Source: a virus
Taxonomy: Duplodnaviria > Heunggongvirae > Uroviricota > Caudoviricetes
Virus record (IMG/VR): IMGVR_UViG_2541047778_000015
DNA length: 40,861 nucleotides
Reading direction: 5' to 3' (one strand)
Part shown: positions 6,617 through 35,427 of the stretch, in pieces
Numbering within the stretch: the stretch's first letter is position 1
Layout: each line of letters starts with the position of its first letter
Translations under genes and position numbers: made by a program
Notes under the pieces: model-generated
Told to the model about the DNA's origin: nothing
Database searches by the model: none
What the model saw: only the letters and a program-made list of their open reading frames with translations

Positions 6617-6633
6617 ATTACCTTTCGGGTAAT
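6617..6633. promoter_or_regulatory. Operator-like site ATTACC-tttcg-GGTAAT
   Basis: 17-bp palindrome of the recurring family; intergenic, between the tailspike start and the LexA box. Confidence 0.5.
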
Positions 6634-6669
6634 TTGCAAAACGTGCTGGATAGCAAACAAATTATTTGA

Positions 6670-6689
6670 TACTGTATAAATATACAGTT
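6670..6689. promoter_or_regulatory. LexA (SOS) box
   Basis: TACTGTATAAATATACAGTT: CTGT-N8-ACAG with an AT-rich spacer, close to the consensus TACTGTATATATATACAGTA; lies 20 bp upstream of the 6709 start and overlaps a TATAAAT -10-like hexamer. Confidence 0.7.
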
Positions 6690-6708
6690 ATTGCATGGAG
6701 AAGATAAG

Positions 6709-6966
6709 ATGCAGCAGTATCACTATCCACTGGAAGACGGATTTACCGAAAGGATTCACACGCCGGGAGGCGTCAGATCACTGGTGGAGGGATCGCACTT
6801 GATGAAATTACTCCGGGATCTCGATAAGGATGGATTTAATGTCGATGGCCCACTTGCCGAACTGACTGCACTGATTAACTACGTCACCAGCTCACAGATG
6901 TCTATGCAGGATCTGCAAACACATCTCGACTATTGTGCCGAACAATTACGAAAACAAACCACATAA
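6709..6966 (+). CDS. Small protein homologous to the shared antirepressor C-terminal module (candidate SOS-inducible antirepressor)
   Basis: ATG at 6709 with GGAG 8 nt upstream (ORF track used TTG at 6691); the 85-aa product aligns with the C-termini of the 8112 and 10849 genes. Confidence 0.55.
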   Translation: MQQYHYPLEDGFTERIHTPGGVRSLVEGSHLMKLLRDLDKDGFNVDGPLAELTALINYVTSSQMSMQDLQTHLDYCAEQLRKQTT

Positions 6967-6990
6967 AGAAAAGGCCGCTCTAGCGGCCTA
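6967..6990. terminator. Hairpin between convergent genes (bidirectional terminator candidate)
   Basis: GGCCGC-tcta-GCGGCC with an A-run upstream (U-run for the minus-strand transcript). Confidence 0.45.
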
Positions 6991-7716
6991 TCGTTTCGCT
7001 TTGTGCTCGTCCCAGCACGTTTTGCACCATGCCATTAAGCCGTCCGCATTTTGATTATTAGGGTAAAAGCTAGTTCGTTTTCTGCGGACATTACAAATTG
7101 GGCACCACTTCATATGGCGTGTATTCTTTGGGCCATCGAGACACCTTGCACACCACTTAGTCAATCCATCTGGATTTTTTGACGATTTCCTGAATTTTTC
7201 ATATGGAAGGTTTATTCTGCATCGCAAGCACTGCTTGCTACCACTTGAAACTCTGTTAGCTGATTCTTCTTTTGGCGGCGATACAGAAGGTATTCTTGCT
7301 GGCTCTGATACTGCCTGAGGTGCTTTTTTAGATGACTGAGACGATATGTCATCACCAGGGAATCTTCCATGATATGCCGGACGCGTTGACACTCCGGGTG
7401 GAAGCTCAGCTGTAAACGGCTTTGGCTGAATCAGTTGCCTCTCTTTTGCTAACTCCTGCTGTTTATAATATGTCTGGATTACCGCGCTATCATAAGCAGG
7501 AGGTACGGAAATATTAGGCGCATTATCTCCCGTTTTTTGAAACTGAGTGGAGGTGTGTTCTATCACCTGTGTACGATTAATCGTTATCTCCCCATCTTCA
7601 GTCTTTATCGTTTTGTTATGATTAACGACCGTACGATCAGAGATCTTAGTCTTGTTCTGGTTGATAACGTAAATAATCACCGCAACCACACCAACAACTA
7701 CCCAGAAAACTTCCAT
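6988..7716 (-). CDS. Membrane-anchored protein with tandem Cys-rich (zinc-ribbon-like) repeats, unknown function
   Basis: N-terminal TM helix (MEVFWVVVGVVAVIIYVI); C-terminal repeats SKNPDGLTKWCARC and NQNADGLMAWCKTC plus further CxxC pairs. Confidence 0.55.
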   Translation of the reverse strand: MEVFWVVVGVVAVIIYVINQNKTKISDRTVVNHNKTIKTEDGEITINRTQVIEHTSTQFQKTGDNAPNISVPPAYDSAVIQTYYKQQELAKERQLIQPKPFTAELPPGVSTRPAYHGRFPGDDISSQSSKKAPQAVSEPARIPSVSPPKEESANRVSSGSKQCLRCRINLPYEKFRKSSKNPDGLTKWCARCLDGPKNTRHMKWCPICNVRRKRTSFYPNNQNADGLMAWCKTCWDEHKAKR

Positions 7717-7735
7717 TGCCTTTCCTCACAATAAC

Positions 7736-7752
7736 ATTACCTTAAAGGTAAT
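7736..7752. promoter_or_regulatory. Operator-like site ATTACC-ttaaa-GGTAAT
   Basis: Perfect 6-bp arms; 20 bp upstream of the start of the 6988..7716 gene. Confidence 0.5.
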
Positions 7753-7800
7753 ATCTTGCTTTCAGGTGATCAAGCGTTAAACGCAATCAACCAAATACGG

Positions 7801-7845
7801 TTGATTTTAATATTTCTTCGCGTTTATCATTACCTTTGCGGTAAA
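7801..7845 (+). promoter_or_regulatory. Sigma70-like promoter with overlapping operator-like site
   Basis: TTGATT, 18-bp spacer, TATCAT, with ATTACC-tttgc-GGTAAA (7829..7845) overlapping the -10/+1 region. Confidence 0.5.
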
Positions 7846-7960
7846 TTTACATCGCACTCCTCTTGTGCCATAGTAATCGGGCACTGGCAAAATCCAGTGC
7901 CGGGATTGGTCTCCCGGATTACTACAGAGGCACATATGCCGCATAAGCGGTTTTTTTATG
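7838..7960 (+). ncRNA. Candidate structured small RNA or leader/attenuator upstream of the Bro-N antirepressor
   Basis: Outer helix AGTAATC/GATTACT encloses hairpins GGCACTGG-caaaat-CCAGTGCC and GGGA-ttggtc-TCCC; followed by GCCGC-ataa-GCGG plus T7. Confidence 0.4.
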
Positions 7961-8111
7961 TGTAAAGCGCACCTATTCTATGGTGGGCTGTGTGGGGGCA
8001 CCGAAAGGTGCGCCGGGTTCCTTTGTAGCCGGTAAGACCAACTCTGCACAGTTCACCACCATCTGATTGGTCTCAGCGGTGGTGATTAACCTAACTACAA
8101 AGGTGATCGCC

Positions 8112-8804
8112 ATGAATACCAAACCTTCCATCTTTTCCTTTGAGTCATCCTGCCAGATCCGTATGTTCATGATTGACGGAGAACCTTGGTTTGTCACCAA
8201 AGATGTGTGCAATGCTTTGAATATTGATGTTACACAAGCGAGAAAACTTGATAAAAAAGGCTGGAACAAAAAGGGGCTGTATTCAATACAGACCCCTGGT
8301 GGAATACAAGAACTATCCATCGTTTCAGAATCAGGTCTCTACATCCTTATTCTGCGTTGCAAAGAGGCAATGACTGAGGGAACGAGAGCATTCAGATTTC
8401 TTGAATGGGTTACAGGTGAGGTTCTTCCTCAGATCCGCCGCACCGGAAGTTACATTAAAAACTCGCTCCCGCAGGAAGAACGCATAAAGATGGTTGCCGA
8501 CCAGGTAGCCAACGCCACAGCATCAGCAGTGATGCAGGCAATGAAGATAGAGAACAAAACCTACAGTGCCCCACTGAAGCCCGGCTACCGCAGCCTGATT
8601 CATTCTCCGTCTGGTGTTCTCGGCCTGACGGAGAACTCATTGCTTATGAATCTGCTAAACCAGTTACAGGAAGACGGGCACGACGTATCGGGCGCGGCGG
8701 CGGAGCTGACCACCATGTTCTGCTACATCGTCGGTGTGAGCAAATGCCTGCGTGATATCCAGACCCACGCGGAGTACATCAACGACAAGGCAGGGTTCTT
8801 CTGA
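8112..8804 (+). CDS. Antirepressor with Bro-N/KilA-N-type N-domain and shared C-terminal module
   Basis: Start at MNTKPSIFSF (ATG 8112); the N-terminal segment IRMFMIDGEPWFVTKDVCNALNI is Bro-N-like; the last 77 aa are identical to the C-terminus of the 9911..10849 product. Confidence 0.7.
   Translation: MNTKPSIFSFESSCQIRMFMIDGEPWFVTKDVCNALNIDVTQARKLDKKGWNKKGLYSIQTPGGIQELSIVSESGLYILILRCKEAMTEGTRAFRFLEWVTGEVLPQIRRTGSYIKNSLPQEERIKMVADQVANATASAVMQAMKIENKTYSAPLKPGYRSLIHSPSGVLGLTENSLLMNLLNQLQEDGHDVSGAAAELTTMFCYIVGVSKCLRDIQTHAEYINDKAGFF
8571..8804 (+). repeat. Inverted-repeat copy A (codes the shared 77-aa C-terminal module)
   Basis: Reverse complement matches 9911..10144 with about a dozen single-base differences by hand alignment, all synonymous. 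Confidence 0.8.
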
Positions 8805-8841
8805 CGGGCGGTGGCACAGGGATGTGCCTTTAAAATAATCA

Positions 8842-8886
8842 TTGGCGATGTGATGTAGATTCGCGTAATATTACCTTACGGGTAAG
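8842..8886 (+). promoter_or_regulatory. Promoter-like hexamers with operator-like site ATTACC-ttacg-GGTAAG
   Basis: TTGGCG, ~17-18 bp spacer, TAATAT, then the 17-bp palindrome at 8870..8886; upstream of the 8945 gene. Confidence 0.45.
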
Positions 8887-8944
8887 AAAGCGTTTTTAAT
8901 CTTCCCTTCAAAACGCGTCCTGTAGCCAAACATGGGAGGACGAA

Positions 8945-9577
8945 ATGAAAACAAATACAACAAGAAAAGCGATGCCATACATTATCCCAGAAGCAGATTT
9001 CGACAGAAAACTGAACATGTCTGAGAAGAACACTAGTCACACCGAAAGCTACTTAGCGAAAGGTGTGGTTGATTTCGTTCTTCCGGGATTCACAACACCT
9101 TATGGTTATCGCCTTGTAAAATCTTGTAATGGCGATCATTACAGAATGATTACTACCAGCGATACTCCAGAAACGGTGTATGCGGTTAAGTTAATCTTTC
9201 GGGAAGATATCGTCGAAGCTAAAAGAACATGTACGCAGATCATGGTATGGCGTACGCCTAATGTTATTCATGACCGTGCTGTTCATGGTTTGCCTCAGAT
9301 TTTTTTTCAGTTCTTTCTAGAGCAATATGCGATCGTTGTATCTGATGAGCAACAAACAATCGATGGGAGAAGATTCTGGGAAAGAATGATTTCTTGGGCT
9401 ATAAACACCCCGGGATATAATGTATACGTTTCAGATGGCTCTGAAGAAGATAGACCTCTTAGCTTCATGACATCATGGGATGATTTCTATAGCCAGTGGG
9501 CTGATTTCTGTTGGGGCAGTGATAAAGATGTGCATACCCACAGACTACTGGTTATAAGCAAAGATAAACTGCATTAA
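8945..9577 (+). CDS. Hypothetical protein, accessory cargo
   Basis: 210-aa ORF with its own promoter-like region and downstream terminator; no family recognised. Confidence 0.55.
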   Translation: MKTNTTRKAMPYIIPEADFDRKLNMSEKNTSHTESYLAKGVVDFVLPGFTTPYGYRLVKSCNGDHYRMITTSDTPETVYAVKLIFREDIVEAKRTCTQIMVWRTPNVIHDRAVHGLPQIFFQFFLEQYAIVVSDEQQTIDGRRFWERMISWAINTPGYNVYVSDGSEEDRPLSFMTSWDDFYSQWADFCWGSDKDVHTHRLLVISKDKLH

Positions 9578-9581
9578 TAGA

Positions 9582-9603
9582 AGCCCGCAGCGCGGGCTTT
9601 TTT
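9582..9603 (+). terminator. Intrinsic terminator
   Basis: GCCCGC-agc-GCGGGC followed by TTTTTT. Confidence 0.65.
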
Positions 9604-9675
9604 GTGGACGAAACAAAAGTCAGTGCTACACTCATTGACGCCACATTGAGGTGGCTTATAGATGGAAATTTCACA

Positions 9676-9860: not shown

Positions 9861-9910
9861 GTGACATGTCACGCTAGTTTCGTTTTGCACGTCCCTGTGC
9901 CGCCGTTCTG

Positions 9911-10144
9911 TCAGAAGAACCCTGCCTTGTCGTTGATGTATTCCGCGTGCGTCTGGATATCACGCAGGCATTTGCTCACACCAACGATGTAGCAGAACAT
10001 GGTGGTCAGCTCCGCCGCCGCGCCCGATACATCGTGCCCGTCTTCCTGTAACTGGTTCAGCAGATTCATCAGCAGTGAGTTCTCCGTCAGGCCGAGAACA
10101 CCCGACGGCGAATGAATCAGACTGCGGTAGCCTGGCTTCAATGG
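9911..10144 (-). repeat. Inverted-repeat copy B (codes the shared 77-aa C-terminal module)
   Basis: See copy A at 8571..8804. Confidence 0.8.
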
Positions 10145-10849
10145 ATAACCATAACATTTTGTCTGTGTTTTAATTGCCTCACGAAGCGCATCTAACATCT
10201 TGACTGCCACTTCATCATTCTCTGATGCAGATCCAGCAGGGAGATACTCCCCTTCAAGCGGAACCCGAGCAACAAGAGACAACGCTTCGGCAAATTGATC
10301 TTCACCAATTTCTTTGTACGAACAGCCAAAATGAGATTTCAGTGACGACCACATGGTGATCATCGCCTTAGCCTGTTTTTCTTTTGGCAGAGACTGACCG
10401 CGACTCATGACGAGTTGTTTAATGGCTTCCTGCTGTTCAGTTGTTATTTTACCCGGCAACGCCTTTTTAGCTTTGCGTGGGTTAACCACATGGCCTTTAG
10501 TCCAGTACTCGTAGAGCACATCGTCACACTCTTCCTGATACTGGATTACCTTGTCGCGGATTTCAGGGCGGACTTTGTTAGGGCTGATGCTGTTCAACCA
10601 AGCTGCCAATTTTCGTAAAGCCATACAAATCATGGCTTGCACCCCACCGGCAGAAGGTATGGTGATTTCCACCATACCCTTCGAGAAGCGTTGAGAAATC
10701 TTCTTATGTTGAGATTTCCAGTCTAGCCCCATTCCCTCAACGATAGGTTTCATTGGGGTATACGGTTCGCCGTTGTGATTGACAACATAAAGCTCTGCGC
10801 CGTGGAATGGCACGTTGATAGTAGATACTGCTGTTGCTATACTCGTCAT
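9911..10849 (-). CDS. Antirepressor with P22 Ant-type N-domain and shared C-terminal module
   Basis: N-terminus YVVNHNGEPYTPMKPIVEGMGLDWKSQHKKI resembles the P22-type antirepressor N-domain; last 77 aa identical to the 8112..8804 product; sits downstream of an Arc-like gene as in P22 immI. Confidence 0.7.
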   Translation of the reverse strand: MTSIATAVSTINVPFHGAELYVVNHNGEPYTPMKPIVEGMGLDWKSQHKKISQRFSKGMVEITIPSAGGVQAMICMALRKLAAWLNSISPNKVRPEIRDKVIQYQEECDDVLYEYWTKGHVVNPRKAKKALPGKITTEQQEAIKQLVMSRGQSLPKEKQAKAMITMWSSLKSHFGCSYKEIGEDQFAEALSLVARVPLEGEYLPAGSASENDEVAVKMLDALREAIKTQTKCYGYPLKPGYRSLIHSPSGVLGLTENSLLMNLLNQLQEDGHDVSGAAAELTTMFCYIVGVSKCLRDIQTHAEYINDKAGFF

Positions 10850-10898
10850 GTCGTTAATTCCTATACGTAGTTTTACGATACTGAAGCCCTGACGGTCT

Positions 10899-10912
10899 GG
10901 CCACCGTGGGGC
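10899..10912. promoter_or_regulatory. Mnt-operator-like near-palindrome (GGCCACCGTGGGGC)
   Basis: Contains CCACGGTGG on the opposite strand, the core I recall from the P22 mnt operator; second copy at 11104..11118. Confidence 0.4.
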
Positions 10913-10921
10913 TTCGCTGTT

Positions 10922-11089
10922 TTATGCCACGCTATTCTTCTCACCAGTGAGTCCATACACTTTCCTCAGCTGATAGATAATCTCTGTATTGAACTTTCGG
11001 CATTCTTTTTCGCCATTTCTTTCAATAGCTAACTTCACATCGTCCGGAAAACGAACTCGTCGTTGACACATCTCTTTTGCTTTTTGCAT
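10922..11089 (-). CDS. Arc-like ribbon-helix-helix repressor
   Basis: Start at MQKAKEM with AGGAG 7 nt upstream (ORF track used GTG at 11110); RVRFPDDVKLAIERNGEKECRKFNTEIIYQL parallels the P22 Arc RHH region. Confidence 0.6.
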   Translation of the reverse strand: MQKAKEMCQRRVRFPDDVKLAIERNGEKECRKFNTEIIYQLRKVYGLTGEKNSVA

Positions 11090-26707: not shown

Positions 26708-26721
26708 TTCAATGACTCCGG

Positions 26722-26928
26722 TTACTGACCAAGCAGCGTTTTACCGCTGGTATTAGCAGTTGATGTGTCGCCCTGAGAACCGGTAAGCAGCGTAGAACTA
26801 CGACCAGCAGCAGCGCGACGGCGACGAGTTTCTTCGTCGCGGGCATCAACAACGGCGGCATCCTGCTCCTGTGGTGCTGCCTGAACTTCTGGTGTTGCAG
26901 GCACTGACGGTGAGCTACCCATGCACAT
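26722..26928 (-). CDS. Small hypothetical protein upstream of portal
   Basis: GGAG 8 nt upstream of the ATG at 26928; Ala/Thr/Glu-rich 68 aa; preferred over the overlapping 79-aa frame. Confidence 0.4.
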   Translation of the reverse strand: MCMGSSPSVPATPEVQAAPQEQDAAVVDARDEETRRRRAAAGRSSTLLTGSQGDTSTANTSGKTLLGQ

Positions 26929-27017
26929 ATCAATGACTCCGTACGCAATTAAATTATTACCAATTTAACCACATATGATTTATTTATCGTAGATAGTTGA
27001 CATTTAACGCACGAATT

Positions 27018-27034
27018 ATTACCTTTTAGGTAAG
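27018..27034. promoter_or_regulatory. Operator-like site ATTACC-tttta-GGTAAG
   Basis: TTGACA hexamer at 26997..27002 immediately upstream. Confidence 0.45.
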
Positions 27035-27355
27035 CAAATGGTTCATTCCGGTTATTAACCTGACTGGCTTGTCGTTAAATTGAACAGGTGGAGTGAGCTT
27101 TTATTTTGAGCAGTACGGCGTATGGCACATGCGCCGATAGCGGTCTGGATACGTTTAAGGGGCACCCTCCCTTGCTCGGGCAAACGAACCAGGTAGCCGG
27201 AATGTGCAAGTCGAGCGGTTTTATTCCGCGCACGGGGATTCACCATCCCGGCGATTCGGTGTGACGCCTCGGAAGAGACGAGGGTACAACGATGAGAGCA
27301 TTTATGGAGCCGCGACAAAGTGTGGTGCCTTAACAGGCTAAGTGCTCTCAGCGTT

Positions 27356-27432
27356 GTGGCATTAGCTCAGTCGGACAGAGCAACCGCCTTCTAAGCGGTT
27401 GGTCGCAGGTTCGAATCCTGCATGCCACGCCA
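27356..27432 (+). tRNA. tRNA-Arg (anticodon UCU)
   Basis: Hand-folded cloverleaf: acceptor GTGGCAT/ATGCCAC, D-stem GCTC/GAGC, anticodon stem ACCGC/GCGGT with loop CTTCTAA, T-arm GCAGG-TTCGAAT-CCTGC, 3' CCA encoded. Confidence 0.8.
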
Positions 27433-27475
27433 GAATCACGCCTAAGGACCGTGATGCCAGAAGTTCCAGGTGCTT

Positions 27476-27518
27476 GGCGGTGATGGTTTCCCTTGAAGGA
27501 CTATCACCGCCCTTTTTA
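27476..27518 (+). terminator. Hairpin plus T-run downstream of the tRNA
   Basis: GGCGGTGAT ... ATCACCGCC (9-bp stem, long loop) followed by CTTTTT. Confidence 0.45.
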
Positions 27519-27547
27519 CAGCAGGACGCCATTGCGATGACTTCATG

Positions 27548-27563
27548 CTGTAAACCAGTACAG
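27548..27563. promoter_or_regulatory. Weak LexA-box-like element
   Basis: CTGT-aaaccagt-ACAG: correct spacing but the spacer is not AT-rich. Confidence 0.25.
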
Positions 27564-27635
27564 CCACGGAAGGCATAACTCATTGCTTCCAGTTCGCCCG
27601 GTTCGCAGGGCATTTTTTTAAGGTGAGATTAGACT

Positions 27636-28007
27636 ATGAGTGAAAAAGACATTGAATCTGAAATTCAGGCTAAAGGTTTAGCCGCGCCGCGCGTTACGCC
27701 AGACCATATCGAGAGCATTATTGCTCAGGAGGCATATTTCACAGCAGAAGATGGTGCCTTTGGCGTAGCCATAAAAGCGAAACATACTGGCGGAGAGGTA
27801 AACTACCAGCCGCACGAATCACTTTCTCTGCTGACGTTCTGCGTCCTGGTGCTGCGCAACGGCTTCACCGTCACCGGAGAGAGCGCCTGTGCAAGCCCGG
27901 AAAACTTTGATGCAGAAATTGGTCGGAAGATTGCCCGACAGAATGCTGTAAACAAAATCTGGATGCTTGAAGGTTACTTGCTGAAGCAGAAGTTAAGCGA
28001 GCAATAA
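27636..28007 (+). CDS. Hypothetical protein (moron, opposite strand to the virion operon)
   Basis: 123-aa ORF preceded by AGGTGAG RBS; no family recognised. Confidence 0.55.
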   Translation: MSEKDIESEIQAKGLAAPRVTPDHIESIIAQEAYFTAEDGAFGVAIKAKHTGGEVNYQPHESLSLLTFCVLVLRNGFTVTGESACASPENFDAEIGRKIARQNAVNKIWMLEGYLLKQKLSEQ

Positions 28008-28097
28008 CACCGTGACATATCACAAACAGCCAGCCTATGAGCTGGCTTTGTTTTATCCTCATCAGAGGATATCAACAACATTATCCCCTCAAGCGGA

Positions 28098-29573
28098 TTA
28101 AGCATAGGGATCGTAATCTGTGATGGCCTTGCCTTGCTGGTTCTGCTGCCCGGGAATTCGCAGACGCTTAGACACAGGGAACGCAAACGTCAGCAGTAGC
28201 GCATCGCCTTTACCCGGTGAACGCCCAAGCCGCTCCTTGATATCTTCCTTCGGTTCGATAACGATTTTACCGTCCACTCGAACTTTGTACTCTGCCGCCG
28301 ACAGGTCGTCTGCTGTTTCCTGGTCATCCAGCATGCCGCCCAGCCTCAGCCATGTCTTGCATGAGTTGAACATCTCCCCACGCTTGTTGAGCATCTGCGG
28401 GTCAGTAGACGCGCCACCGAACGGAACAAGTTGCCATGTGCGCCCCCAACCGTCACCGATTGACTTCAGCCCGGTACCGTAACCGAAGTCGATGAACACC
28501 GCGTCAGCCTGATACTGGTCTTCAAAGTCAGCGATACGCTTCGCCATAATCAGATCGTCAGTGGTCTTGTTGCCGGTCCACAGCACCTTACTATGCAGCC
28601 CCTGCCGCAGGTATATCACAGCGTCATCAACGCCGGAGTATGCCGGGTCAACGCCGATTATCACCGGAGCATGTGCAACCTGCGCAGCGGTTACCACCCG
28701 TTTCATTGCCTCGTCAGTAAGTCCGGTAGGGATAAACTGCAATTCAGATGCATCCGGGAATATGCCGCGCACACGGATTTTAACGAAGTCGCTGTCTTCC
28801 CCGTAGTCATCAACCCATTTCTGCAACTGCTGTTTGTTAGTGCCTTCCACCGTCCGGCTGTCAATCTGCGCAGTTTTCCAGCGGTGTTTATATTTGCGGA
28901 AACATTCGCGGAAACGCCCGGTGTTACGTGTAGGGTTTCCGAACGCCACCCAGATAATCTCAGTGTCTTCGTCCGTAAGCGCACCCTCAGCAACTTCCCA
29001 CACCAGATCCGCAATGTTCGACGCTTCATCGAATACCACGATGATGCGTTTGCGCTCGTTGTGTAGTCCGGCGAATGCCTCAGTGTTGTGCTCAGACCAG
29101 GGGATTGCGTCAGCTCGCCACCGCTTGTCGTGCCCAGGATCATTGCTGTACATCGCGGTAGCGGTACAGGTAAACCAGTCTTTCGTGATAGCAAGGTTCG
29201 ACCACTTGATAATTTCCGGCCAGGTCTTCGTTCGTAGCTGGTTGTCGGTGTTGGCGGTCACCACGACCTTACAATCCTCGCAAGTGGACATGCCCCAGTT
29301 GATCAGCATTGAGATGAATGCGGATTTACCAATACCGTGACCAGAAGCGCGTGCCAGCATAAGCGGCTGATAGCGCGTCGCTGGATTCTGCAGGTGATCA
29401 CGTATCTCTCGGAACGCATCAGCCTGCCACTGACGTGGGCCGGTAGCATGTGCCAGTTCAGTCCCTTCTTCCCCCCACGGGAACGCATAGAGGGCATAGC
29501 CAAGCGGATCGTGAGTGAACCCTGCAATATCCTCGATCAACTGCTCTTCAGGAGATAACGCTGTATCTGTCAC
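28098..29573 (-). CDS. Terminase large subunit
   Basis: 491 aa; Walker A-like ASGHGIGKS; acidic nuclease-region motifs in the C-terminal half. Confidence 0.85.
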   Translation of the reverse strand: MTDTALSPEEQLIEDIAGFTHDPLGYALYAFPWGEEGTELAHATGPRQWQADAFREIRDHLQNPATRYQPLMLARASGHGIGKSAFISMLINWGMSTCEDCKVVVTANTDNQLRTKTWPEIIKWSNLAITKDWFTCTATAMYSNDPGHDKRWRADAIPWSEHNTEAFAGLHNERKRIIVVFDEASNIADLVWEVAEGALTDEDTEIIWVAFGNPTRNTGRFRECFRKYKHRWKTAQIDSRTVEGTNKQQLQKWVDDYGEDSDFVKIRVRGIFPDASELQFIPTGLTDEAMKRVVTAAQVAHAPVIIGVDPAYSGVDDAVIYLRQGLHSKVLWTGNKTTDDLIMAKRIADFEDQYQADAVFIDFGYGTGLKSIGDGWGRTWQLVPFGGASTDPQMLNKRGEMFNSCKTWLRLGGMLDDQETADDLSAAEYKVRVDGKIVIEPKEDIKERLGRSPGKGDALLLTFAFPVSKRLRIPGQQNQQGKAITDYDPYA

Positions 29574-30166
29574 TGATTACCATCCTGACGTTCTTTGAGT
29601 CGCTTCCTGGCTGCTGCTATGCGATCAGCAATTGTCACATTCACATTAACATCCAGACGTTCTTTGAACGCGTTGACATCAACATGCTTACCAATCAGCT
29701 CAAGGTTCTTCACCTTGTCAGGCCATTTAATTTTTTTGAGGATTGTCTCTATCGAATCCTCGTTCATGTTCATGATGGTCGACGACAGATCAAAGCCACT
29801 AAGCGTAGTGCGCCAGATTTTCGGCCACTCACGGATTGGTTTAAGGCTCCCATCGTCGTTGAGGATGTCGATCACGTCCATCTGGTCGATCTCCACCAGG
29901 CGCATGAGAACGTAATCAGCACTGACGCGCATTCGTTTGTTGCGCTCCTCCATCAACTCGGCAATCCGTTTCTGAATGCGTTCATCGCGCATCATGACAC
30001 TGGCTTTAACTGCCGCTGTGTTTGGGGAGAATCCTGCGTTAATCGCTGCCTGAGTCTGGTTTTCAGGCGTTTTGATGTATGACTGGCAATAAGCCTCCTG
30101 CATTGCTGTGAGCGGCTTAAATTGCGTTGATTTGCGTTTATAGGTTTTAGGTTCAGCAGGCATCAT
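29570..30166 (-). CDS. Terminase small subunit
   Basis: Start taken at MMPAEPK; the ORF-track N-terminal extension is the translation of the upstream operator-like repeat; 4-bp overlap with the large subunit gene. Confidence 0.6.
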   Translation of the reverse strand: MMPAEPKTYKRKSTQFKPLTAMQEAYCQSYIKTPENQTQAAINAGFSPNTAAVKASVMMRDERIQKRIAELMEERNKRMRVSADYVLMRLVEIDQMDVIDILNDDGSLKPIREWPKIWRTTLSGFDLSSTIMNMNEDSIETILKKIKWPDKVKNLELIGKHVDVNAFKERLDVNVNVTIADRIAAARKRLKERQDGNQ

Positions 30167-30182
30167 AACCACCGTGGTAATA

Positions 30183-30199
30183 GTTACCGTTGTGGTAAT
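30183..30199. promoter_or_regulatory. Operator-like site GTTACC-gttgt-GGTAAT
   Basis: Preceded by an extra GGTAAT half-site at 30176..30181; directly upstream of the terminase genes. Confidence 0.45.
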
Positions 30200-30284
30200 A
30201 ATACCATGCAAAATAAAGCCGCCATAGTTGGCGGCAGTATTCAAAATCCATCAAATTCATCATGCATAATCTACTCGTGACATG

Positions 30285-30632
30285 TCACACTATTAATTTC
30301 GTTTCATGCCAGCCTTTAGTCACCCAGCATTGCGAGTCACCATTACACGGGCATGAATTAACTGGAACTCTCTCGCCGCACTTACCGCAACGTTTTCTGC
30401 TGATCGATTTTATACGCCCGCGCACGCGTGCATCATCCTGGCGGATCAGTAACGCGATGTATTCGCTCATTTCATACGGCGCACGACCAGGGCGACGGGC
30501 GGCACAGTTACGCTCCAGCATTTCCTGCTCCTGCTTATCCAGCACCAGTTCAATTTTGCGCTCACCGGCGGCGGACTGCCGAGCGCGCTGCGCGGCTTTG
30601 CGTTCTGCGGGGGATTTAGCCACGAATCGCAC
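30285..30632 (-). CDS. Zinc-ribbon protein, candidate regulator
   Basis: C-terminal CGKCGERVPVNSCPCNG; basic N-terminal region; last gene before the terminase promoter region. Confidence 0.45.
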   Translation of the reverse strand: MRFVAKSPAERKAAQRARQSAAGERKIELVLDKQEQEMLERNCAARRPGRAPYEMSEYIALLIRQDDARVRGRIKSISRKRCGKCGERVPVNSCPCNGDSQCWVTKGWHETKLIV

Positions 30633-30738
30633 TCCACGCCAGATTGATTAATGACTCCCAGGCAATATAAACCCGGATACCAGCAGCCAGGCCGAAACCA
30701 ATCACCATGGCATAAAGCAGAGCGTTGCACTTGTTCAT
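30616..30738 (-). CDS. Candidate 40-aa single-pass membrane peptide (below the ORF-track length cutoff)
   Basis: MNKCNALLYAMVIGFGLAAGIRVYIAWESLINLAWSAIRG; its ATG overlaps the upstream gene's stop (TAATG). Confidence 0.3.
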   Translation of the reverse strand: MNKCNALLYAMVIGFGLAAGIRVYIAWESLINLAWSAIRG

Positions 30739-31265
30739 TACTTCACCTCCTGCGGCGGTTCCGGTAGCGGCATCCAGTGAGTTGCCTGCTCAATACCATT
30801 ACCCGGCTTAATCGTTGCTTCTCCTCGCCGGAATGTGCTTCCGGTATAGCGTGCGGAGCATATTAGCGGTTCAACCAGAGAGCTGTCGAAATTCACCGAA
30901 ATAAGCACGTTCTTGTTCTTTTCCGGCATTCGCTCACTACAGCTTATCCAACTATCCGGAGTTGCCGGATAGTTGCCAGATAGCTCGTTCAACTTGTAAG
31001 TTTGGCTTACGGGTTCGGCTTCCAGTTCCGCTATGCGCTTTTTTGCTGTTTCCAGCTCGCCCAGCAGCGCCAAGACGGTAGCCGGATTGGCTGCGGCTAT
31101 GAATCGTTTATTGGCGCGATTATCCGGTCCTGAGCATGATGCTATGTAGTAATTGGCGTTCAGTCCGGCATCGGCAATTACTCCATGGTAGTCATCAGTA
31201 CACCATTCGCCTGGTGTTGCATTTTCTGCCGCCTCACGCAGTGCCTGGTAATTAATTTCGCTCAC
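30738..31265 (-). CDS. Ea22-like N-terminus / DUF551-like C-terminus protein
   Basis: N-terminus ALREAAENATPGEWCTDD and C-terminus HWMPLPEPP match motifs I recall from lambdoid prophage proteins of these families. Confidence 0.55.
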   Translation of the reverse strand: MSEINYQALREAAENATPGEWCTDDYHGVIADAGLNANYYIASCSGPDNRANKRFIAAANPATVLALLGELETAKKRIAELEAEPVSQTYKLNELSGNYPATPDSWISCSERMPEKNKNVLISVNFDSSLVEPLICSARYTGSTFRRGEATIKPGNGIEQATHWMPLPEPPQEVK

Positions 31266-31879
31266 TGGTTGCCTCCTTTGCGAAGCTGGGCAGCAAAGTC
31301 AACTAACCACTCAGTCATTTCAACCTTCCCTACCAGGTCTGAACCAGGGTGCATACAGCAATCACTCTGCGCCGCTTTGAAATCCTTATACTCATATTCT
31401 TGGGCCACCAGATTTTTTGCAGCTTCTATAGCAGCATCCACCCCCTGCGCCCGCACTTCAGCCAGGCATTTGCGAAACTCGGAAACGTACTGTTCGACGC
31501 TCATTCCCCAGCTAAGTGGACATTCATTGAATGTTTCGCCTTCGTGCTCTTCATCAGGTAGCTCTTTGGTAAAGAACTCACGTTCAATGGCGTGGAGTGT
31601 GTCAGCAAAACGACGTAAGTTACTCAAACCTGTCGTAATGGAGAATTCAGGAGCATCACATCCGACGCCCATCTGCTGATAAACGGCGGTTTTGAAGGCC
31701 TTAAGCCCAGCATTCTCCGCTGCCAGCGCATTAGCACGCACCAGTTGCACTTCCAGTTGCGTTGCCAAATCGCTGATCAGCTTTGCCACACTGCGCATAT
31801 CAACGGCACCACATTCTGCGTTCAGTTCCGAAGCCATCTCATGCCCGGCGGCAACTAACCCTTTGATATTACTTTCCAT
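31262..31879 (-). CDS. Hypothetical protein
   Basis: 205-aa ORF overlapping the following gene by 4 bp. Confidence 0.5.
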   Translation of the reverse strand: MESNIKGLVAAGHEMASELNAECGAVDMRSVAKLISDLATQLEVQLVRANALAAENAGLKAFKTAVYQQMGVGCDAPEFSITTGLSNLRRFADTLHAIEREFFTKELPDEEHEGETFNECPLSWGMSVEQYVSEFRKCLAEVRAQGVDAAIEAAKNLVAQEYEYKDFKAAQSDCCMHPGSDLVGKVEMTEWLVDFAAQLRKGGNQ

Positions 31880-31940
31880 CTTTACCCTCGCTTATCCACA
31901 TAACTTATTGATTACATTGATAACTAAAAAGATCGTCGAT

Positions 31941-32285
31941 TCAGAACTCTTCGATGTTCCAGCCACCACCTGCTTTCTTTGGTTTAACCGTTACCCCGAT
32001 GATTCGGAACGGATACTGATCTGCGGCGACTTTGGTTTTCACCCTGGCGTCGTCGGTCCAGAAACCTTTCACTTCGTGCAGTTCCATCTCTCCGGTGGCG
32101 AGCATCACAGCGAAATCGGGCGTATAGAACGTGTTGTCAGCTAACCGCAGCTTGATACCCTCGAATCGATACCAGGCGATTTCCCCTGCACGTTTACGCT
32201 GCTCAAGGTGCTGGCAATACGCAGATTCTGTTTTGTTCATCTGGCCTGTTTTGAGTCGACCAAGAGCCTGTATCTGTTTTCTCAT
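31941..32285 (-). CDS. Small PD-(D/E)XK-type nuclease-like protein (nin-region)
   Basis: YTPDF ... ELHEVKG motif pattern typical of small phage restriction-endonuclease-fold proteins. Confidence 0.5.
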   Translation of the reverse strand: MRKQIQALGRLKTGQMNKTESAYCQHLEQRKRAGEIAWYRFEGIKLRLADNTFYTPDFAVMLATGEMELHEVKGFWTDDARVKTKVAADQYPFRIIGVTVKPKKAGGGWNIEEF

Positions 32286-32287
32286 GA

Positions 32288-32304
32288 TTTACCTCTAAGG
32301 TAAT
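32288..32304. promoter_or_regulatory. Operator-like site TTTACC-tctaa-GGTAAT
   Basis: One mismatch in the left arm; overlaps the RBS region of the 32285 gene. Confidence 0.4.
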
Positions 32305-32349
32305 TAAAAACCATATAAGACACGAAATCAATAGAGTTTAGAATATTTT

Positions 32350-32366
32350 GTTACCTTGTAGGTAAT
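32350..32366. promoter_or_regulatory. Operator-like site GTTACC-ttgta-GGTAAT
   Basis: Intergenic, between the replication genes and the nin-like block. Confidence 0.45.
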
Positions 32367-32402
32367 TGTTGAGGCGTAAAAAAATGCGCTATCGCGCTGG
32401 TA

Positions 32403-33179
32403 TTACTTGATAAATCCTGCCGCCTTTCCCCGCCTGTATTCCTCCATCAGCCACTGCGCCGGTGTTATTCCCCCAAGGGTGGCGGCGTTAGGCATGCACC
32501 CGAAACTTCGCCCTGGTGGATGGTAAACGTCTCTCCCTGTGTCCGGAGGCGTACTCATGGGTTCTGGCTTTGCCTGTATGCTGATCACCGGATCGGGTAT
32601 CTGCTGTCCGGAAGCCACCTTTTTCGCCCAATCATCGAGCAGCCTGCGCGCGTGTTTCTCAACCTCAATCTCGCTAAGCTGGCGCTGATACATTGCACGG
32701 CGGGTATCACATACGACCCAGTACATAACCGGATGCCGCCACGGGAATCTTTCGGGACCACCAGGATATAAACTTTTTTCCTTGCTGTACCGGTGAAACT
32801 CCGCCATCACATCGTCAATGGTGACGCCAAGAACCATCTTGCTGTCTTTACACCACTTGATGAATTGCCCTGGCGACGGCCAGAACGGAGACTCACTGGC
32901 GCGGGCGTGGCGCATACCAGCGTTAACCTGTTCCATTGTAGTGATCCCATTCTCCAGAAACGCAAGCATCCATTGCTTACGGAATTCATTAAGTTTGTTC
33001 TGCTCCCTTATGGTCGAAACGCTTGCAGGAAATGCAGCCTGTAACTGGACAAATAGTTCATTGAAAATTCTAGCGACCTGCTCCTTTTTGCCATTGCTGT
33101 CACGCCGCTCTTCATGCACAGCAACACCATGCTCACGTAAGCGATCGTACTCATTGAGAAGTTCTGGAGTTGATTTCAT
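32403..33179 (-). CDS. Replication protein P-like helicase loader
   Basis: AAFPASVSTIREQNKLNEFRKQWMLAFLENGITTMEQVNAGMRHA...PSPGQFIKWC parallels lambda P as recalled. Confidence 0.75.
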   Translation of the reverse strand: MKSTPELLNEYDRLREHGVAVHEERRDSNGKKEQVARIFNELFVQLQAAFPASVSTIREQNKLNEFRKQWMLAFLENGITTMEQVNAGMRHARASESPFWPSPGQFIKWCKDSKMVLGVTIDDVMAEFHRYSKEKSLYPGGPERFPWRHPVMYWVVCDTRRAMYQRQLSEIEVEKHARRLLDDWAKKVASGQQIPDPVISIQAKPEPMSTPPDTGRDVYHPPGRSFGCMPNAATLGGITPAQWLMEEYRRGKAAGFIK

Positions 33180-33981
33180 CCCACACCCCTTCTATCCAGT
33201 CAGTGTTATTCCAGTCAAGCTCATCGCTTTTCCCGACGTTTTTTGATTTTCCCCTGATATGATTTACGTGCCTGGCGAATTTTTGTTCCCACTGAACCTG
33301 CGTGAACACTTTGCCCTCAGCCATCCAGTAATCCCGGAATGCAGCAAGTTCAGCAGGTGTAAATTCCGGTTCCGGCAGGGCCGTTCCCCACAGCGCAGCA
33401 CGCCGTCGAAAATCCGGCGACGGATGCCAGCCATCGGTCATCGGAAATTTCCCAATAGGTTCACTCAGGCCATCCAGAAATGCAGGTTCTGCCACCTGCA
33501 ACGGCGTACCGTTCGCTTCACTGGTCGGATCACTCTCGCGCGCGTGTGCTATGTGTGGGGTTTTATATATATCTTCCTCTTCCTCTTCCTCTGGTAACTC
33601 CTTTTGTAACGCTGTTGGCGTTACTTTTTGCGTTACTCGTTTTCGATGCTCTGCCACTCTTCTATTCGTAAGTGCACGTTTTTTCGATGATTCTCCATTG
33701 TGTCGCTCAAAGTTTGGAAGAATTAGTTTGCCGTCATGATAAGCAAGCCATCCGACGCTAATGAGGGCGTCAGCAAATCCTGTAATAAAAGCGAGTCTAT
33801 CAAGTACTCCTTTTGTAACGCTGCCAGCGTTACCGTCTATTGTTTGCTGGTCAGCCCATGCCCATATACGAACCAGCTTTCCAAGAACAGCATCTGGATC
33901 AATACCCAGAATTTCTGCTATCTGAAAAATTTCAGGTTTATCAGGAGTGATAACTTCAACCTTAATCCAGCTGCTTGCCAT
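33151..33981 (-). CDS. Replication initiator (replisome-organiser N-domain, DnaT-like C-domain) containing the candidate origin
   Basis: Start at MASSWIKVEV (AGAGGGG RBS); internal Glu6 linker coded by a TC-rich/AT-rich tract; C-terminal FTPAELAAFRDYW region; iteron-like palindromes inside the gene. Confidence 0.7.
   Translation of the reverse strand: MASSWIKVEVITPDKPEIFQIAEILGIDPDAVLGKLVRIWAWADQQTIDGNAGSVTKGVLDRLAFITGFADALISVGWLAYHDGKLILPNFERHNGESSKKRALTNRRVAEHRKRVTQKVTPTALQKELPEEEEEEDIYKTPHIAHARESDPTSEANGTPLQVAEPAFLDGLSEPIGKFPMTDGWHPSPDFRRRAALWGTALPEPEFTPAELAAFRDYWMAEGKVFTQVQWEQKFARHVNHIRGKSKNVGKSDELDWNNTDWIEGVWDEINSRTSQ
33561..33836. other. Candidate origin of replication: pyrimidine/AT-rich tract plus GTAACGC-N5-GCGTTAC palindromes
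   Basis: TTTTATATATATCTTCCTCTTCCTCTTCCTC (33561..33592); palindromes at 33606..33624 and 33815..33833 embedded in a 28-bp direct repeat with 3 mismatches; extra GCGTTAC at 33630..33636. Confidence 0.5.
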
Positions 33982-34156
33982 AGGTTTCCCCTCTTGCACT
34001 CTTTAGTGCACAAGCAAATTCATTACGATGGCGGTTGGCGCTATTCATTGCACATTCAACACATGTTCCGTTCAGAACATACCTTTCAGAGAGATGGCCG
34101 TGACGGCACCGCTTTCCTGTGAAATAGCGATTTAACCCGGCTTTTGCGGCCTCCAT
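33962..34156 (-). CDS. Small Cys-containing protein overlapping the initiator start (doubtful)
   Basis: 64-aa frame with CRHGH ... CVEC; weak RBS; occupies the position where lambda carries cII. Confidence 0.25.
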   Translation of the reverse strand: MEAAKAGLNRYFTGKRCRHGHLSERYVLNGTCVECAMNSANRHRNEFACALKSARGETYGKQLD

Positions 34157-34251
34157 TCTGGTTACTATCTTCAATTTTTCCGCCCCTTTTTGTTATTGAT
34201 ATTGGCTATTTTGCACAATTGGAAAATTTGATCAACCAGATTTGGTTTTTT

Positions 34252-34268
34252 ATTACCTTTGAGGTACG
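34252..34268. promoter_or_regulatory. Operator-like site ATTACC-tttga-GGTACG (degenerate right arm)
   Basis: Between the cro-like gene and the replication genes. Confidence 0.35.
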
Positions 34269-34269
34269 A

Positions 34270-34301
34270 ATAGATATGAAAAGACCGCCGGATGGCGGTC
34301 T
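34270..34301 (-). terminator. tR1-like terminator candidate downstream of cro
   Basis: Perfect 8-bp hairpin AGACCGCC-ggat-GGCGGTCT; on the minus strand it is followed by UUUCAUAUCUAU. Confidence 0.4.
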
Positions 34302-34322
34302 ACAGAGGGTTGTGGATGGATA

Positions 34323-34553
34323 TCATGAGTAGAAGAAGTATGCCAGTTCTGCTTTTGAGCGCAGCCATTGTCTTGTTTTACAGGCTTTAAAAAGCCCATT
34401 CATCAATACCTTACCTGGCATTTTGCGCTTACCTGTTAAGTGAGTCTGGATATAGTGACTCGTCGTTCCGGCTTCCTGTGCGAAGGCTTCACGCTCATCC
34501 GGAGTAAGTGCAAGCCAGTGCTTTTTGAAATCGAAATGTCCGTTATCGCTCAT
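34323..34553 (-). CDS. Cro-like HTH regulator
   Basis: 76 aa; AGTTSHYIQTHLTGKR resembles the Cro-type HTH; divergent from the repressor gene. Confidence 0.6.
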   Translation of the reverse strand: MSDNGHFDFKKHWLALTPDEREAFAQEAGTTSHYIQTHLTGKRKMPGKVLMNGLFKACKTRQWLRSKAELAYFFYS

Positions 34554-34588
34554 AGCTATTGCCTGATATTTATTTCAGATAATAAATA

Positions 34589-34653
34589 TTCACCCATAAG
34601 GTAACAAAAATCAAGGATAGTTACCTATGGGGTGCATTTACCTGTTGGGTAAT
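34589..34653. promoter_or_regulatory. Immunity-region operator cluster (three adjacent operator-like sites) between cro and the repressor gene
   Basis: TTCACC-cataa-GGTAAC (34589..34605), TTACC-tatgg-GGTGC (34620..34636), TTTACC-tgttg-GGTAAT (34637..34653); resembles an OR1-OR3 layout. Confidence 0.5.
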
Positions 34654-34707
34654 ATTGCTTTAAATTGAATCATCTACTGATTCATATATGAGGCGATTTT
34701 CCAGAAA

Positions 34708-35292
34708 ATGAAAAGTATCCAGGACGTCCGCAGGCAAAATCTCAACGACTTGATCGACCGTGAATTCAATGGTGTTCAGACGCGGATGGCAGAAAAACTT
34801 GGAACTCAGGCAAATCTGGTAAACCGCTGGGCTCTTGGCAAGAAGGTTATCGGCGACCAGGTTGCGCGAAAAATTGAAGCTGCCGCCAATAAACCCCGTA
34901 ACTGGCTTGATATCGATCGCTCGCTTTCTCAGGAAGGTTTTCAGCCTGTCGGCCCAAGCGACATTGGTCAGCTGGCGGCTCACAACCTGGAACGCTGGAT
35001 GAGCGAAAGCCGCGACCTTTCAACACAGGGAAAACTTCACCGCGCATCCGGCGTCGCCCAGGTGACAATCAGCCGCCTGTTAAACAATGAGGTCAGCGTT
35101 TCCATTTCCACCCTGGAGAATGTTGCATCCGCATTCGGGCGTCACGGCTATGAATTACTGATTCACCCGCACGACCCTGCGACTATCAACTATGACCGCT
35201 CGCGCTACGCATTGTTACCCGAAACCGAGAAAGCAAAGATCGAAAGTTACATTGAATTTGTCATCAACCAGAACGAAAAAAACAAACAATAA
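34708..35292 (+). CDS. Prophage repressor with two HTH-like regions and no S24 autocleavage domain
   Basis: 194 aa; HTH-like segments near residues 24-46 and 110-145; no Ala-Gly / Ser-Lys peptidase region seen; divergent from cro. Confidence 0.65.
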   Translation: MKSIQDVRRQNLNDLIDREFNGVQTRMAEKLGTQANLVNRWALGKKVIGDQVARKIEAAANKPRNWLDIDRSLSQEGFQPVGPSDIGQLAAHNLERWMSESRDLSTQGKLHRASGVAQVTISRLLNNEVSVSISTLENVASAFGRHGYELLIHPHDPATINYDRSRYALLPETEKAKIESYIEFVINQNEKNKQ

Positions 35293-35313
35293 AACTATAG
35301 TTTTCAGCAAGTA

Positions 35314-35339
35314 AGCCGCCTCATGGCGGCTTTTTTATT
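35314..35339 (+). terminator. Intrinsic terminator after the repressor gene
   Basis: AGCCGCC-tcatg-GGCGGCT followed by TTTTTTATT. Confidence 0.65.
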
Positions 35340-35348
35340 GCCAGCAAG

Positions 35349-35427
35349 ATTACCTTGTGGGTAATTTTTTTAACTCATATCTATTGACATCAAACCAGAT
35401 ACGCATAATCATTACCTCAACGGTAAC
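35349..35427 (+). promoter_or_regulatory. Early-left promoter (PL-like) flanked by two operator-like sites
   Basis: ATTACC-ttgtg-GGTAAT (35349..35365); TTGACA (35384..35389), 17-bp spacer, AATCAT; ATTACC-tcaac-GGTAAC (35411..35427) overlapping -10/+1. Confidence 0.5.

Follow-up and report, generated by a model that had tools for sequence, protein, structure and literature searches.

The palindrome ATTACC-N5-GGTAAT that recurs along the 40,861-nucleotide stretch of DNA analysed here (the window) is almost certainly the operator of the prophage master repressor. The window holds a phiV10/TL-2011b-like Uetakevirus (epsilon15-like) prophage, and 15 credible copies of the palindrome (Table 1) very probably serve as operators of a Rep protein of the epsilon15/SPC32H type, which would bind them as a tetramer. 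Dispersed operators of this sort are a documented feature of the whole genus, and the window is therefore an ordinary case of a known system and not a new kind.

The palindrome with up to two mismatches was found 14 times in the window against 1.17 expected, while the largest count in 100 dinucleotide shuffles of the window was 5; three copies are exact (6617, 7736 and 35349). Thirteen of the 14 matches are intergenic (binomial P ~1e-11, with a non-coding fraction of 11.7%), so the motif is not equally frequent in coding sequence, and shuffling the intergenic DNA alone gave a mean of 0.2 matches and a maximum of 3. An unbiased census of every hyphenated palindrome with 5-nt arms in the window placed TTACC-N5-GGTAA first, with 11 exact copies, all intergenic, whereas unrelated palindromes of this class reached two copies each at most. 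A scan of the lambda genome returned 0 matches. The counts against expectation, the intergenic shuffles and the lambda result together rule out chance or base composition as the source of the motif. A first-pass annotation had listed about 14 dispersed sites, all described as intergenic; 12 of these lie within two mismatches of the consensus, 34589 and 34620 are degenerate, and a site missing from that list, 30165, was added. The two degenerate sites were kept as credible because they adjoin 34637 in a three-site layout like that of epsilon15, with spacings of 17 and 30-31 bp (epsilon15 pair 33340/33357). The resulting 15 sites occupy nine loci between 6617 and 35427 and are all intergenic; a match at 2728, inside coding sequence, was left out as a chance match. 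A composite pattern, ATATGTGGTT-N6-GGTAATA, yielded nothing useful since the real gap is 5 nt. On the + strand, spacer positions 7 and 8 show an excess of T (12/15 and 9/15) in this small sample, and the symmetric positions are less biased.

Table 1. Predicted operators, candidate promoters and associated features, in positions of the window.
Feature	Position	Strand	Context and counterparts
Predicted Rep operator, exact	6617-6633		Divergent tailspike/ant intergenic region; syntenic with annotated epsilon15 site 19895-19911
Predicted LexA (SOS) box, perfect, CTGT-N8-ACAG, CTGTATAAATATACAG	6672-6687		21 bp upstream of ant
Ant, 85-aa antirepressor	6709-6966	+	Orthologue of SPC32H Ant
orf242	6988-7716	-	
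Predicted Rep operator, exact	7736-7752		20 bp upstream of orf242; 93 bp from operator 7829; TL-2011b counterpart at 34477
Candidate promoter TTGATT-18-TATCAT	7801-7830	+	Reads into isrK, C4 RNA, BroN-Ant
Predicted Rep operator	7829-7845		Fused to -10 of candidate promoter 7801-7830
Predicted Rep operator	8870-8886		Upstream of orf210; fused to -10-like TAATAT
orf210	8945-9577	+	
Predicted Rep operator	27018-27034		Between portal/structural operon (-) and tRNA-Arg/orf123 unit (+); syntenic with annotated epsilon15 site 2931-2947
Predicted Rep operator, ATAACCACCGTGGTAAT	30165-30181		Abuts TerS start codon (30163, -); 18 bp from 30183
Predicted Rep operator	30183-30199		Upstream of TerS; fused to -10-like TATTAT (- strand); annotated epsilon15 site 12-27
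Predicted proximal Rep operator, nin-like promoter	32288-32304		Geometry as at epsilon15 35968
Candidate nin-like promoter TTGATT-17-TTTAAT	32331 to 32303	-	
Predicted distal Rep operator, nin-like promoter	32350-32366		62 bp from 32288; annotated epsilon15 site 35906-35922
Predicted Rep operator	34252-34268		Just past cro terminator, upstream of replication genes; counterparts Tyrion 35364, BUCT711 6031
cro terminator	34301-34282	-	
Cro-like small regulator	34323-34553	-	Divergent from rep; phrog_35 transcriptional repressor, E = 5e-12
Candidate cro promoter TTGTTA-17-TATTAT	34607 to 34579	-	
Degenerate predicted operator, 3 mismatches, TTCACCCATAAGGTAAC	34589-34605		Inside candidate cro promoter
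Degenerate middle predicted operator, 4 mismatches, GTTACCTATGGGGTGCA	34620-34636		cro-rep intergenic region; PWM score 12.1
Predicted Rep operator	34637-34653		cro-rep intergenic region, beside rep gene
Rep, 194-aa repressor	34708-35292	+	Full-length homologue of SPC32H Rep
Predicted distal Rep operator, exact, PL-like promoter	35349-35365		
Candidate PL-like promoter TTGACA-17-AATCAT	35384-35412	+	
Predicted proximal Rep operator, PL-like promoter	35411-35427		Starts at last two bases of -10

The epsilon15 record (NC_004775.2) annotates the identical palindrome as 'protein_bind, repressor, lysogeny' at seven syntenic sites, which lie upstream of TerS, at the portal operon, in the tail fibre/ant region, and at the PL-like and nin-like promoters; positions 26000-39104 of the phiV10 GenBank record, which include the immunity region, carry no operator annotation. 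The dispersal had been regarded as unusual, but TL-2011b, epsilon15, Tyrion and BUCT711 each carry 14-18 matches (16 against 0.98 expected in Tyrion, and 14 against 0.67 in the Klebsiella phage BUCT711), and it is thus genus-wide. The window and epsilon15 share the consensus, the portal and tail fibre/ant sites, the PL and nin pairs at 62 bp, the three rep-cro sites and the TerS pair 18 bp apart, the last of which recurs at 11/29 in epsilon15, 11589/11607 in TL-2011b and 66/84 in Tyrion. In an alignment of five phages operators 6617 and 27018 are kept, both between diverging flanks, and the LexA box upstream of ant is conserved in all five. On the other hand, three additional operators of the window (7736, 7829 and 8870) sit at accessory modules that are absent from epsilon15, whereas epsilon15 has an operator before its lysis cassette (24703) that the window lacks. 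A search of the window unit by unit found no site at the lysis cassette, Arc-sar-Ant, hyp40-hyp39 or the left-end accessory genes, so that the earlier claim of a site at essentially every transcription unit applies to most of them, about 11 of some 15 assessable.

The proposal that a phage repressor binds the palindrome agrees with the epsilon15 annotation and with the homology of Rep, residues 1-190 of which align with residues 2-197 of SPC32H Rep (PDB 5D50_A; phmmer E = 4e-42). Rep is identical (100%) to the phiV10 and ZX5 repressors but only 43% identical to that of epsilon15 and 42% to that of SPC32H, while Ant (6709-6963) is ~88% identical to PDB 5D50_E (E = 1.3e-47). The domains of Rep comprise an N-terminal DNA-binding HTH, an HTH_3-like middle and a C-terminal part for tetramerisation and Ant binding; Pfam identified only HTH-type domains (HTH_3 at 106-147), with no S24 autocleavage peptidase domain. 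The first-pass annotation was right to name a repressor, but its description as a two-HTH protein needs correction, since in the order DBD-MDD-CAD the second HTH-like domain is a dimerisation module and the N-terminal HTH alone binds DNA (PMC9986798). Tetrameric Rep binds palindromic DNA, and tetrameric Ant splits Rep into dimers (PMC9638917). The window thus contains the features of the Uetakevirus Rep-operator-Ant system, namely a full-length Rep homologue, dispersed syntenic operators, an orthologue of Ant and a predicted LexA box. The antirepression system of SPC32H was reportedly described by Kim and Ryu in 2013, and the Rep-Ant structure is said to have followed from Kim et al. in PNAS in 2016; we take PDB 5D50 and 5D4Z to represent this Rep-Ant-LexA system. 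SPC32H shares with the window the LexA box before ant and a Rep without S24, but the window differs in that isrK-C4-BroN-Ant and Arc-sar-Ant are present as additional antirepressor modules.

It is possible, though rather unlikely, that the palindrome is bound by the Cro-like protein, whether at every site or, on the model of lambda, at the three immunity operators, which it would then share with Rep. This protein is a predicted transcriptional repressor whose gene is transcribed divergently across the three-operator region, and the cro-side operators 34589 and 34620 carry CACC-type half-sites (TTCACC and TGCACC), variants that could mean differential affinity for two proteins; the TTCACC half-site of 34589 is common to epsilon15, where it occurs at 33387. 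We aligned the window proteins with those of epsilon15, Tyrion and BUCT711 and found that, although Rep identity falls to 43%, the operator consensus, the putative recognition stretch NLVNRW (invariant in the four phages) and the Cro-like protein (57-84% identity, with AGTTSHYIQ.HLT invariant) are all conserved. The Cro-like protein and the operator are thus conserved together in all four phages, and since the conservation of this protein equals or exceeds that of Rep, the co-variation fits Rep and Cro alike. However, a lytic-phase regulator acting on the late promoters of terminase, portal and tailspike would counter lytic growth, and the epsilon15 record ascribes the sites to the repressor. 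Furthermore, overexpression of the identical Rep alone, in ZX5, silences lytic transcripts: free phage was abolished and the holin and endolysin mRNAs fell by 99.97-99.99% (PMC9782041).

The positions of the sites relative to candidate promoters are consistent with repression by Rep. These promoters were assigned by consensus scans, in which match counts were no higher than in shuffled sequence. In five operators the first two bases are exactly the final two of a -10 hexamer, so that these operators cover the transcription start; this agrees with the overlap of the -10/+1 region noted before, as at operator 7829, in which TTGATT-18-TATCAT ends. At the bracketed early promoters, including the TTGACA-N17-AATCAT element that does lie between 35349 and 35411 as first described, the -10 merges into the proximal operator, 18-19 nt separate the distal operator from the -35 downstream of it, and the two operators keep a fixed distance of 62-63 bp, about six helical turns. 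A second conserved element, CATATGTGGTT, occurs at the late operons ~30-40 nt downstream of the single sites 6617 and 27018. This position would suit an activator, and both the phrog_536 'transcriptional regulator' (30285-30623) and a PerC-like activator are encoded in the window; nevertheless, a role for either of these, or for a host protein, in binding the palindrome is improbable, because the sites overlapping -10 and +1 fit repression, rep and cro flank the three-site cluster, the epsilon15 annotation names the repressor, and the absence of the motif from lambda argues against a general host-factor site.

We also weighed the reading that the palindromes act as nucleic-acid structure, whether as a cruciform or as an RNA hairpin for processing or termination. 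The arms could pair into a 6-bp stem closed by a 5-nt loop, and transcribed leaders contain some of the sites (30165 and 34252). However, deviations in the arms are never compensatory (0/16 in the window and 0/8 in epsilon15, 0/24 in all), which fits half-site recognition by a protein and not a hairpin; moreover, the stems are short with A/T-rich ends, many sites precede the -35 and hence are untranscribed from the adjacent promoter, and the sites function in both orientations. Given the lack of compensatory changes, we rejected the RNA-structure reading, and a structural role of any kind appears extremely improbable.

If the sites are Rep operators, as sequence and homology predict, Rep in a lysogen would occupy the three rep-cro operators, one of them inside the cro promoter, the operator pairs bracketing the PL-like (recombination) and nin-like promoters, the two tandem sites in the promoter and leader of terminase, and single operators at the portal/structural operon, tailspike/ant, the genes for replication and three accessory units. 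The genome has many separate promoters and no single antitermination cascade, and repression therefore requires an operator at most lytic units. As an autocleavage domain is absent from Rep, induction would proceed through the LexA-controlled antirepressor: DNA damage would lead to LexA cleavage and derepression of the LexA-boxed ant, and Ant would then bind Rep and disassemble the tetramer, freeing all operators together.

We tentatively propose a joint reading in which the operators are interdependent. One Rep tetramer, having two pairs of DNA-binding domains, could clamp both flanks of the RNA polymerase footprint at a bracketed promoter. Rep would also repress a second antirepressor module (isrK-C4 RNA-BroN-Ant), so that LexA-triggered Ant would begin a feed-forward, all-or-none loss of repression, and CATATGTGGTT may mark the late operons beside single Rep operators. 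A full-text literature search for the motif together with epsilon15 returned no match; the 62-63 bp bracketing with fusion to the -10 may be undescribed so far, as may Rep operators before an isrK-C4-Ant module.

Similar arrangements are known elsewhere. In lambda the operators form two clusters (OR and OL), the remainder of the genome is under N/Q antitermination, and CI is cleaved through RecA. The window resembles lambda in its 17-bp two-fold symmetric operators, their overlap with promoters and the presence of three between the divergent repressor and cro genes, but its 15 sites are not confined to two clusters, and Rep lacks S24 and would be relieved by an antirepressor; the initial description of a lambda-style operator is therefore apt for a repressor operator clustered in the immunity region but not for the induction logic. 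The C1 protein of P1 is a single master repressor with many 17-bp operators at separate operons, including the promoter of the c4 antisense RNA-ant unit (immI), and in the window a C4-family RNA and an ant gene likewise follow operator 7829. However, P1 operators are asymmetric whereas the window sites are two-fold symmetric, and Rep, an HTH_3/XRE-type tetramer, is unrelated to C1 and gave no match so labelled (HTH_3 in Pfam, 5D50 in PDB). The gp71 stoperators of mycobacteriophage L5 are asymmetric and orientation-dependent and block elongation inside operons. These stoperators and the conserved inverted repeats of phiC31 resemble the window in that many repressor sites lie along the genome, but unlike those of L5 the window sites are palindromic and intergenic, and most of them lie on or beside promoters, only 30165 and 34252 being leader-like.

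The result is a complete operator map for an E. coli prophage of the phiV10/TL-2011b type, and the palindrome, noticed in raw sequence, correctly recovers the regulatory logic of the epsilon15-like temperate podoviruses: many separate promoters, the same repressor guarding each, and joint switch-on by a LexA-controlled antirepressor. The 62-63 bp bracket and the control of secondary antirepressor and small RNA modules by Rep are testable details, relevant to the question of how tight repression by a tetramer can be combined with release in one step.

A pattern search of the whole window returned three exact matches to ATTACC-N5-GGTAAT (at 6617, 7736 and 35349) and 14 matches with up to two mismatches, compared with 1.17 expected from dinucleotide shuffles of the window, in which the largest count was 5. 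On a gene map taken from the TL-2011b annotation, with a non-coding fraction of 11.7%, 13 of these 14 matches were intergenic (binomial P ~1e-11), and shuffling of the intergenic DNA only gave a mean of 0.2 matches. Among all hyphenated palindromes with 5-nt arms, TTACC-N5-GGTAA ranked first, with all 11 of its copies intergenic; in an unbiased count across the window no unrelated palindrome of this kind exceeded two copies, and the lambda genome held no match to ATTACC-N5-GGTAAT. The recurrence proposed in the first-pass annotation is therefore real, and the comparison of intergenic with coding sequence bears it out. Twelve of the 14 sites listed there lie within two mismatches; the other two, 34589 (three mismatches) and 34620 (four), are degenerate and adjoin 34637 within the cro-rep intergenic region, and one further operator, 30165, had been omitted. 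All 15 credible operator sites are intergenic, and T2, A4, C5 and C6 together with G12, G13 and T14 are invariant over them. A match at 2728, which sits in coding sequence, was rejected as an operator and attributed to chance. The top position weight matrix (PWM) match beyond the listed sites, GTTACCGTTAAGGTCAG (6385-6401, score 13.5), lies ~115-130 bp into the tailspike coding sequence and could be a weak additional operator or a chance occurrence.

The reading of the palindrome as a hairpin was rejected, because no arm deviation from consensus was compensated on the opposite arm, either in the window (0/16) or in epsilon15 (0/8); such uncompensated arms fit a symmetric protein that recognizes each half-site independently. 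The earlier interpretation as a repressor operator was correct, since the epsilon15 RefSeq record annotates the same palindrome: its seven features labelled 'protein_bind, repressor, lysogeny' have exactly the sequence ATTACC-N5-GGTAAT. They are found ahead of TerS, the gp3/portal operon and the nin-like genes, in the interval that separates ant (gp19) from the tail fibre gene, and at the PL-like promoter, a placement that matches the window. Palindrome matches numbered 17 in TL-2011b, 18 in epsilon15, 16 in Tyrion (0.98 expected) and 14 in Klebsiella phage BUCT711 (0.67 expected). In five-phage alignments of the tailspike/ant and portal intergenic regions, the operator is kept and the flanks diverge.

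The window is a phiV10/TL-2011b-like Uetakevirus (epsilon15-like podovirus) prophage, reversed in orientation relative to TL-2011b. Its repressor Rep (194 aa, 34708-35292) is 100% identical to the phiV10 and vB_EcoP_ZX5 repressors; identity is 75-78% with the repressors of two Enterobacter phages and 42-45% with those from Klebsiella and Salmonella relatives, epsilon15 and SPC32H among them. The alignment with SPC32H Rep (PDB 5D50) spans its full length (E = 4e-42), and no S24 peptidase domain was found in it. The NLVNRW stretch of the N-terminal domain is invariant in 4/4 phages, with overall identity down to 43%, which accounts for an operator that is unchanged between phages. Conservation is likewise high for the Cro-like protein (57-84% identity), and co-variation therefore cannot separate Rep from it. 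Overexpression of the ZX5 repressor, to which the window Rep is identical, abolished free phage and lowered holin and endolysin mRNA by 99.97-99.99% (PMC9782041). Citing papers describe SPC32H Rep as binding palindromic DNA as a tetramer, through pairs of DNA-binding domains from different dimers (PMC9638917), and Rep as having three domains, one for DNA binding, a middle one for dimerisation and a C-terminal one for tetramerisation and Ant binding, with the two middle-domain pairs ~100 Å apart (PMC9986798).

Ant (85 aa, 6709-6966) shares ~88% identity with the antirepressor Ant of SPC32H (PDB 5D50_E, E = 1.3e-47), and a perfect LexA box, CTGTATAAATATACAG, at 6672-6687 is kept in all five aligned phages. 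PMC9638917 describes the SPC32H Rep tetramer as broken by tetrameric Ant. The divergence is discordant, as Rep, the presumed target, shares only 42% identity with that of SPC32H, and one may ask by what means Ant stays specific, or whether it works across immunity types. With all of its sequence-level defining features present, the window belongs to the epsilon15/SPC32H Rep-Ant-LexA system; it departs from lambda CI in that Rep lacks an S24 domain and the operators extend beyond two clusters. The mechanism is like that of the P1 C1 repressor, which has dispersed operators, including one in front of the c4-ant operon.

Two further antirepressor modules were recognized (see table). The isrK and C4 RNAs lie directly 3′ of a putative Rep-controlled promoter (7801-7830), with the BroN-Ant gene next, and together they are predicted to form a c4-ant module like P1 immI, controlled by the master repressor. 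The segment 9911-11153, with the Arc-like repressor, the sar antisense RNA and the 312-aa Ant, is a P22 immI-like module; its tentative promoter, TTGACA-17-GACAAT, is without a Rep operator. Given these two modules, three prophage proteins (6709-6966, 8109-8804 and 9911-10849) share the Ant C-terminal domain.

Coordinates of RNAs, genes, promoters and sequence elements
Feature	Position	Strand	Remark
isrK Hfq-binding sRNA	7881-7957	+	Rfam, 74.7 bits
C4 antisense RNA	7976-8063	+	Rfam, 78.6 bits
BroN-Ant gene	8109-8804	+	after isrK and C4 RNA
312-aa Ant	9911-10849	-	
sar antisense RNA	10851-10918	+	44.8 bits
Arc-like repressor	10922-11089	-	
tRNA-Arg(TCT)	27356-27432	+	antisense to structural genes
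PL-like promoter	35384-35412		TTGACA-17-AATCAT; consensus scan, tentative
nin-like promoter	32331 to 32303	-	TTGATT-17-TTTAAT; tentative
Operator fused to -10	7829		TATCAT
Operator fused to -10	8870		TAATAT
Operator fused to -10	30183	-	TATTAT
CATATGTGGTT copies, window	26967-26977, 6578-6588, 3148-3158	-	
CATATGTGGTT copies, epsilon15	2988, 24751, 35953		

Promoter scans yielded consensus matches in numbers not above shuffles, and single promoter assignments are tentative. At the PL-like promoter, the proximal operator (35411) begins on the final two bases of the -10 hexamer and 18 nt lie between the distal operator (35349), on the 5′ side, and the -35. Operators 32288 and 32350 are arranged likewise around the nin-like promoter, and the centre-to-centre spacing is 62 bp in each pair. 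Pairs at 62 bp also occur in TL-2011b, epsilon15, Tyrion and BUCT711, one BUCT711 pair being at 63 bp. When IMG/VR was scanned for any two core operators spaced 45-75 bp, the 35 retrieved loci that were analysed gave 42 distinct pair sequences, 32 at 62 bp, six at 63 bp and four at other spacings. Nearly all of the 62-63 bp pairs read distal operator, N18-19, TTGAnn, N17 and then a -10 fused to the proximal operator, and the sequence between paired operators is diverse. From this fixed, helically phased spacing and the published tetramer geometry, we infer that one Rep tetramer may bridge both operators of a pair. In the tentative cro promoter (TTGTTA-17-TATTAT, 34607 to 34579), operator 34589 lies within the spacer. 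Its variant half-site, TTCACC, is common to epsilon15 33387, and the middle operator (34620-34636) has the related half-site TGCACC. The recurrence of TTCACC in both phages points to an operator that is conserved and tuned for low affinity, or to a half-site favoured by the Cro-like protein.

The earlier claim that one protein touches essentially every transcription unit was overstated: by gene map and PWM scan, ~11 of ~15 assessable units have one or more operators. The PWM scan found none at the lysis cassette (upstream gap 3088-3393), the Arc-sar-Ant unit or hyp40-hyp39. The left-end methyltransferase/DUF5384 genes have no operator in the window, beyond which their own upstream region lies, and no palindrome match falls in the equivalent intergenic region of TL-2011b. 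Rep tetramers would occupy operators at most lytic promoters, occluding the -10/+1 region from proximal operators and, from distal ones, the 5′ margin of the polymerase footprint; upon SOS induction, LexA cleavage would allow Ant to be made, and Ant would strip Rep off all sites simultaneously.

A second conserved element, CATATGTGGTT, is transcription-oriented; its copies precede the portal/structural operon, the tailspike gene and the lysis cassette, 40-75 nt ahead of the start codon in each case. GGTAATA follows it at the portal and tailspike copies, of which the former is invariant in five phages and the latter largely conserved, and the spacer of the nin-like promoter holds a variant. It could serve as a late-promoter element or as a binding site for a regulator. 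Near the portal operator 27018, a TTGAC at 26997, kept in 5/5 phages, stands 17 nt before TACCTT within the operator, which suggests that the tRNA and orf123 are read from a divergent promoter under Rep control. The gp24 ORF annotated in TL-2011b (27362-27613, -) may be spurious because tRNA-Arg(TCT) overlaps it. A promoter-like site (30288 to 30259, -) lies just 3′ of the phrog_536 regulator gene, whose counterpart in epsilon15, gp49, is recorded as resembling N15 gp46; a strong terminator (30235-30218) and then both TerS operators follow. The order of promoter, terminator and late gene at 30200-30290 (-) is similar to that of Q-type antitermination units.

Dispersed operators are a feature already annotated for epsilon15, the type phage of the genus, and are thus already known. 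The operator map may be new for the phiV10-type lineage as annotation, not as biology, because the phiV10 GenBank record annotates no operator sites in 26000-39104, the immunity region included. Only the 62-63 bp bracket, Rep control of the secondary antirepressor modules and the CATATGTGGTT element might be new.
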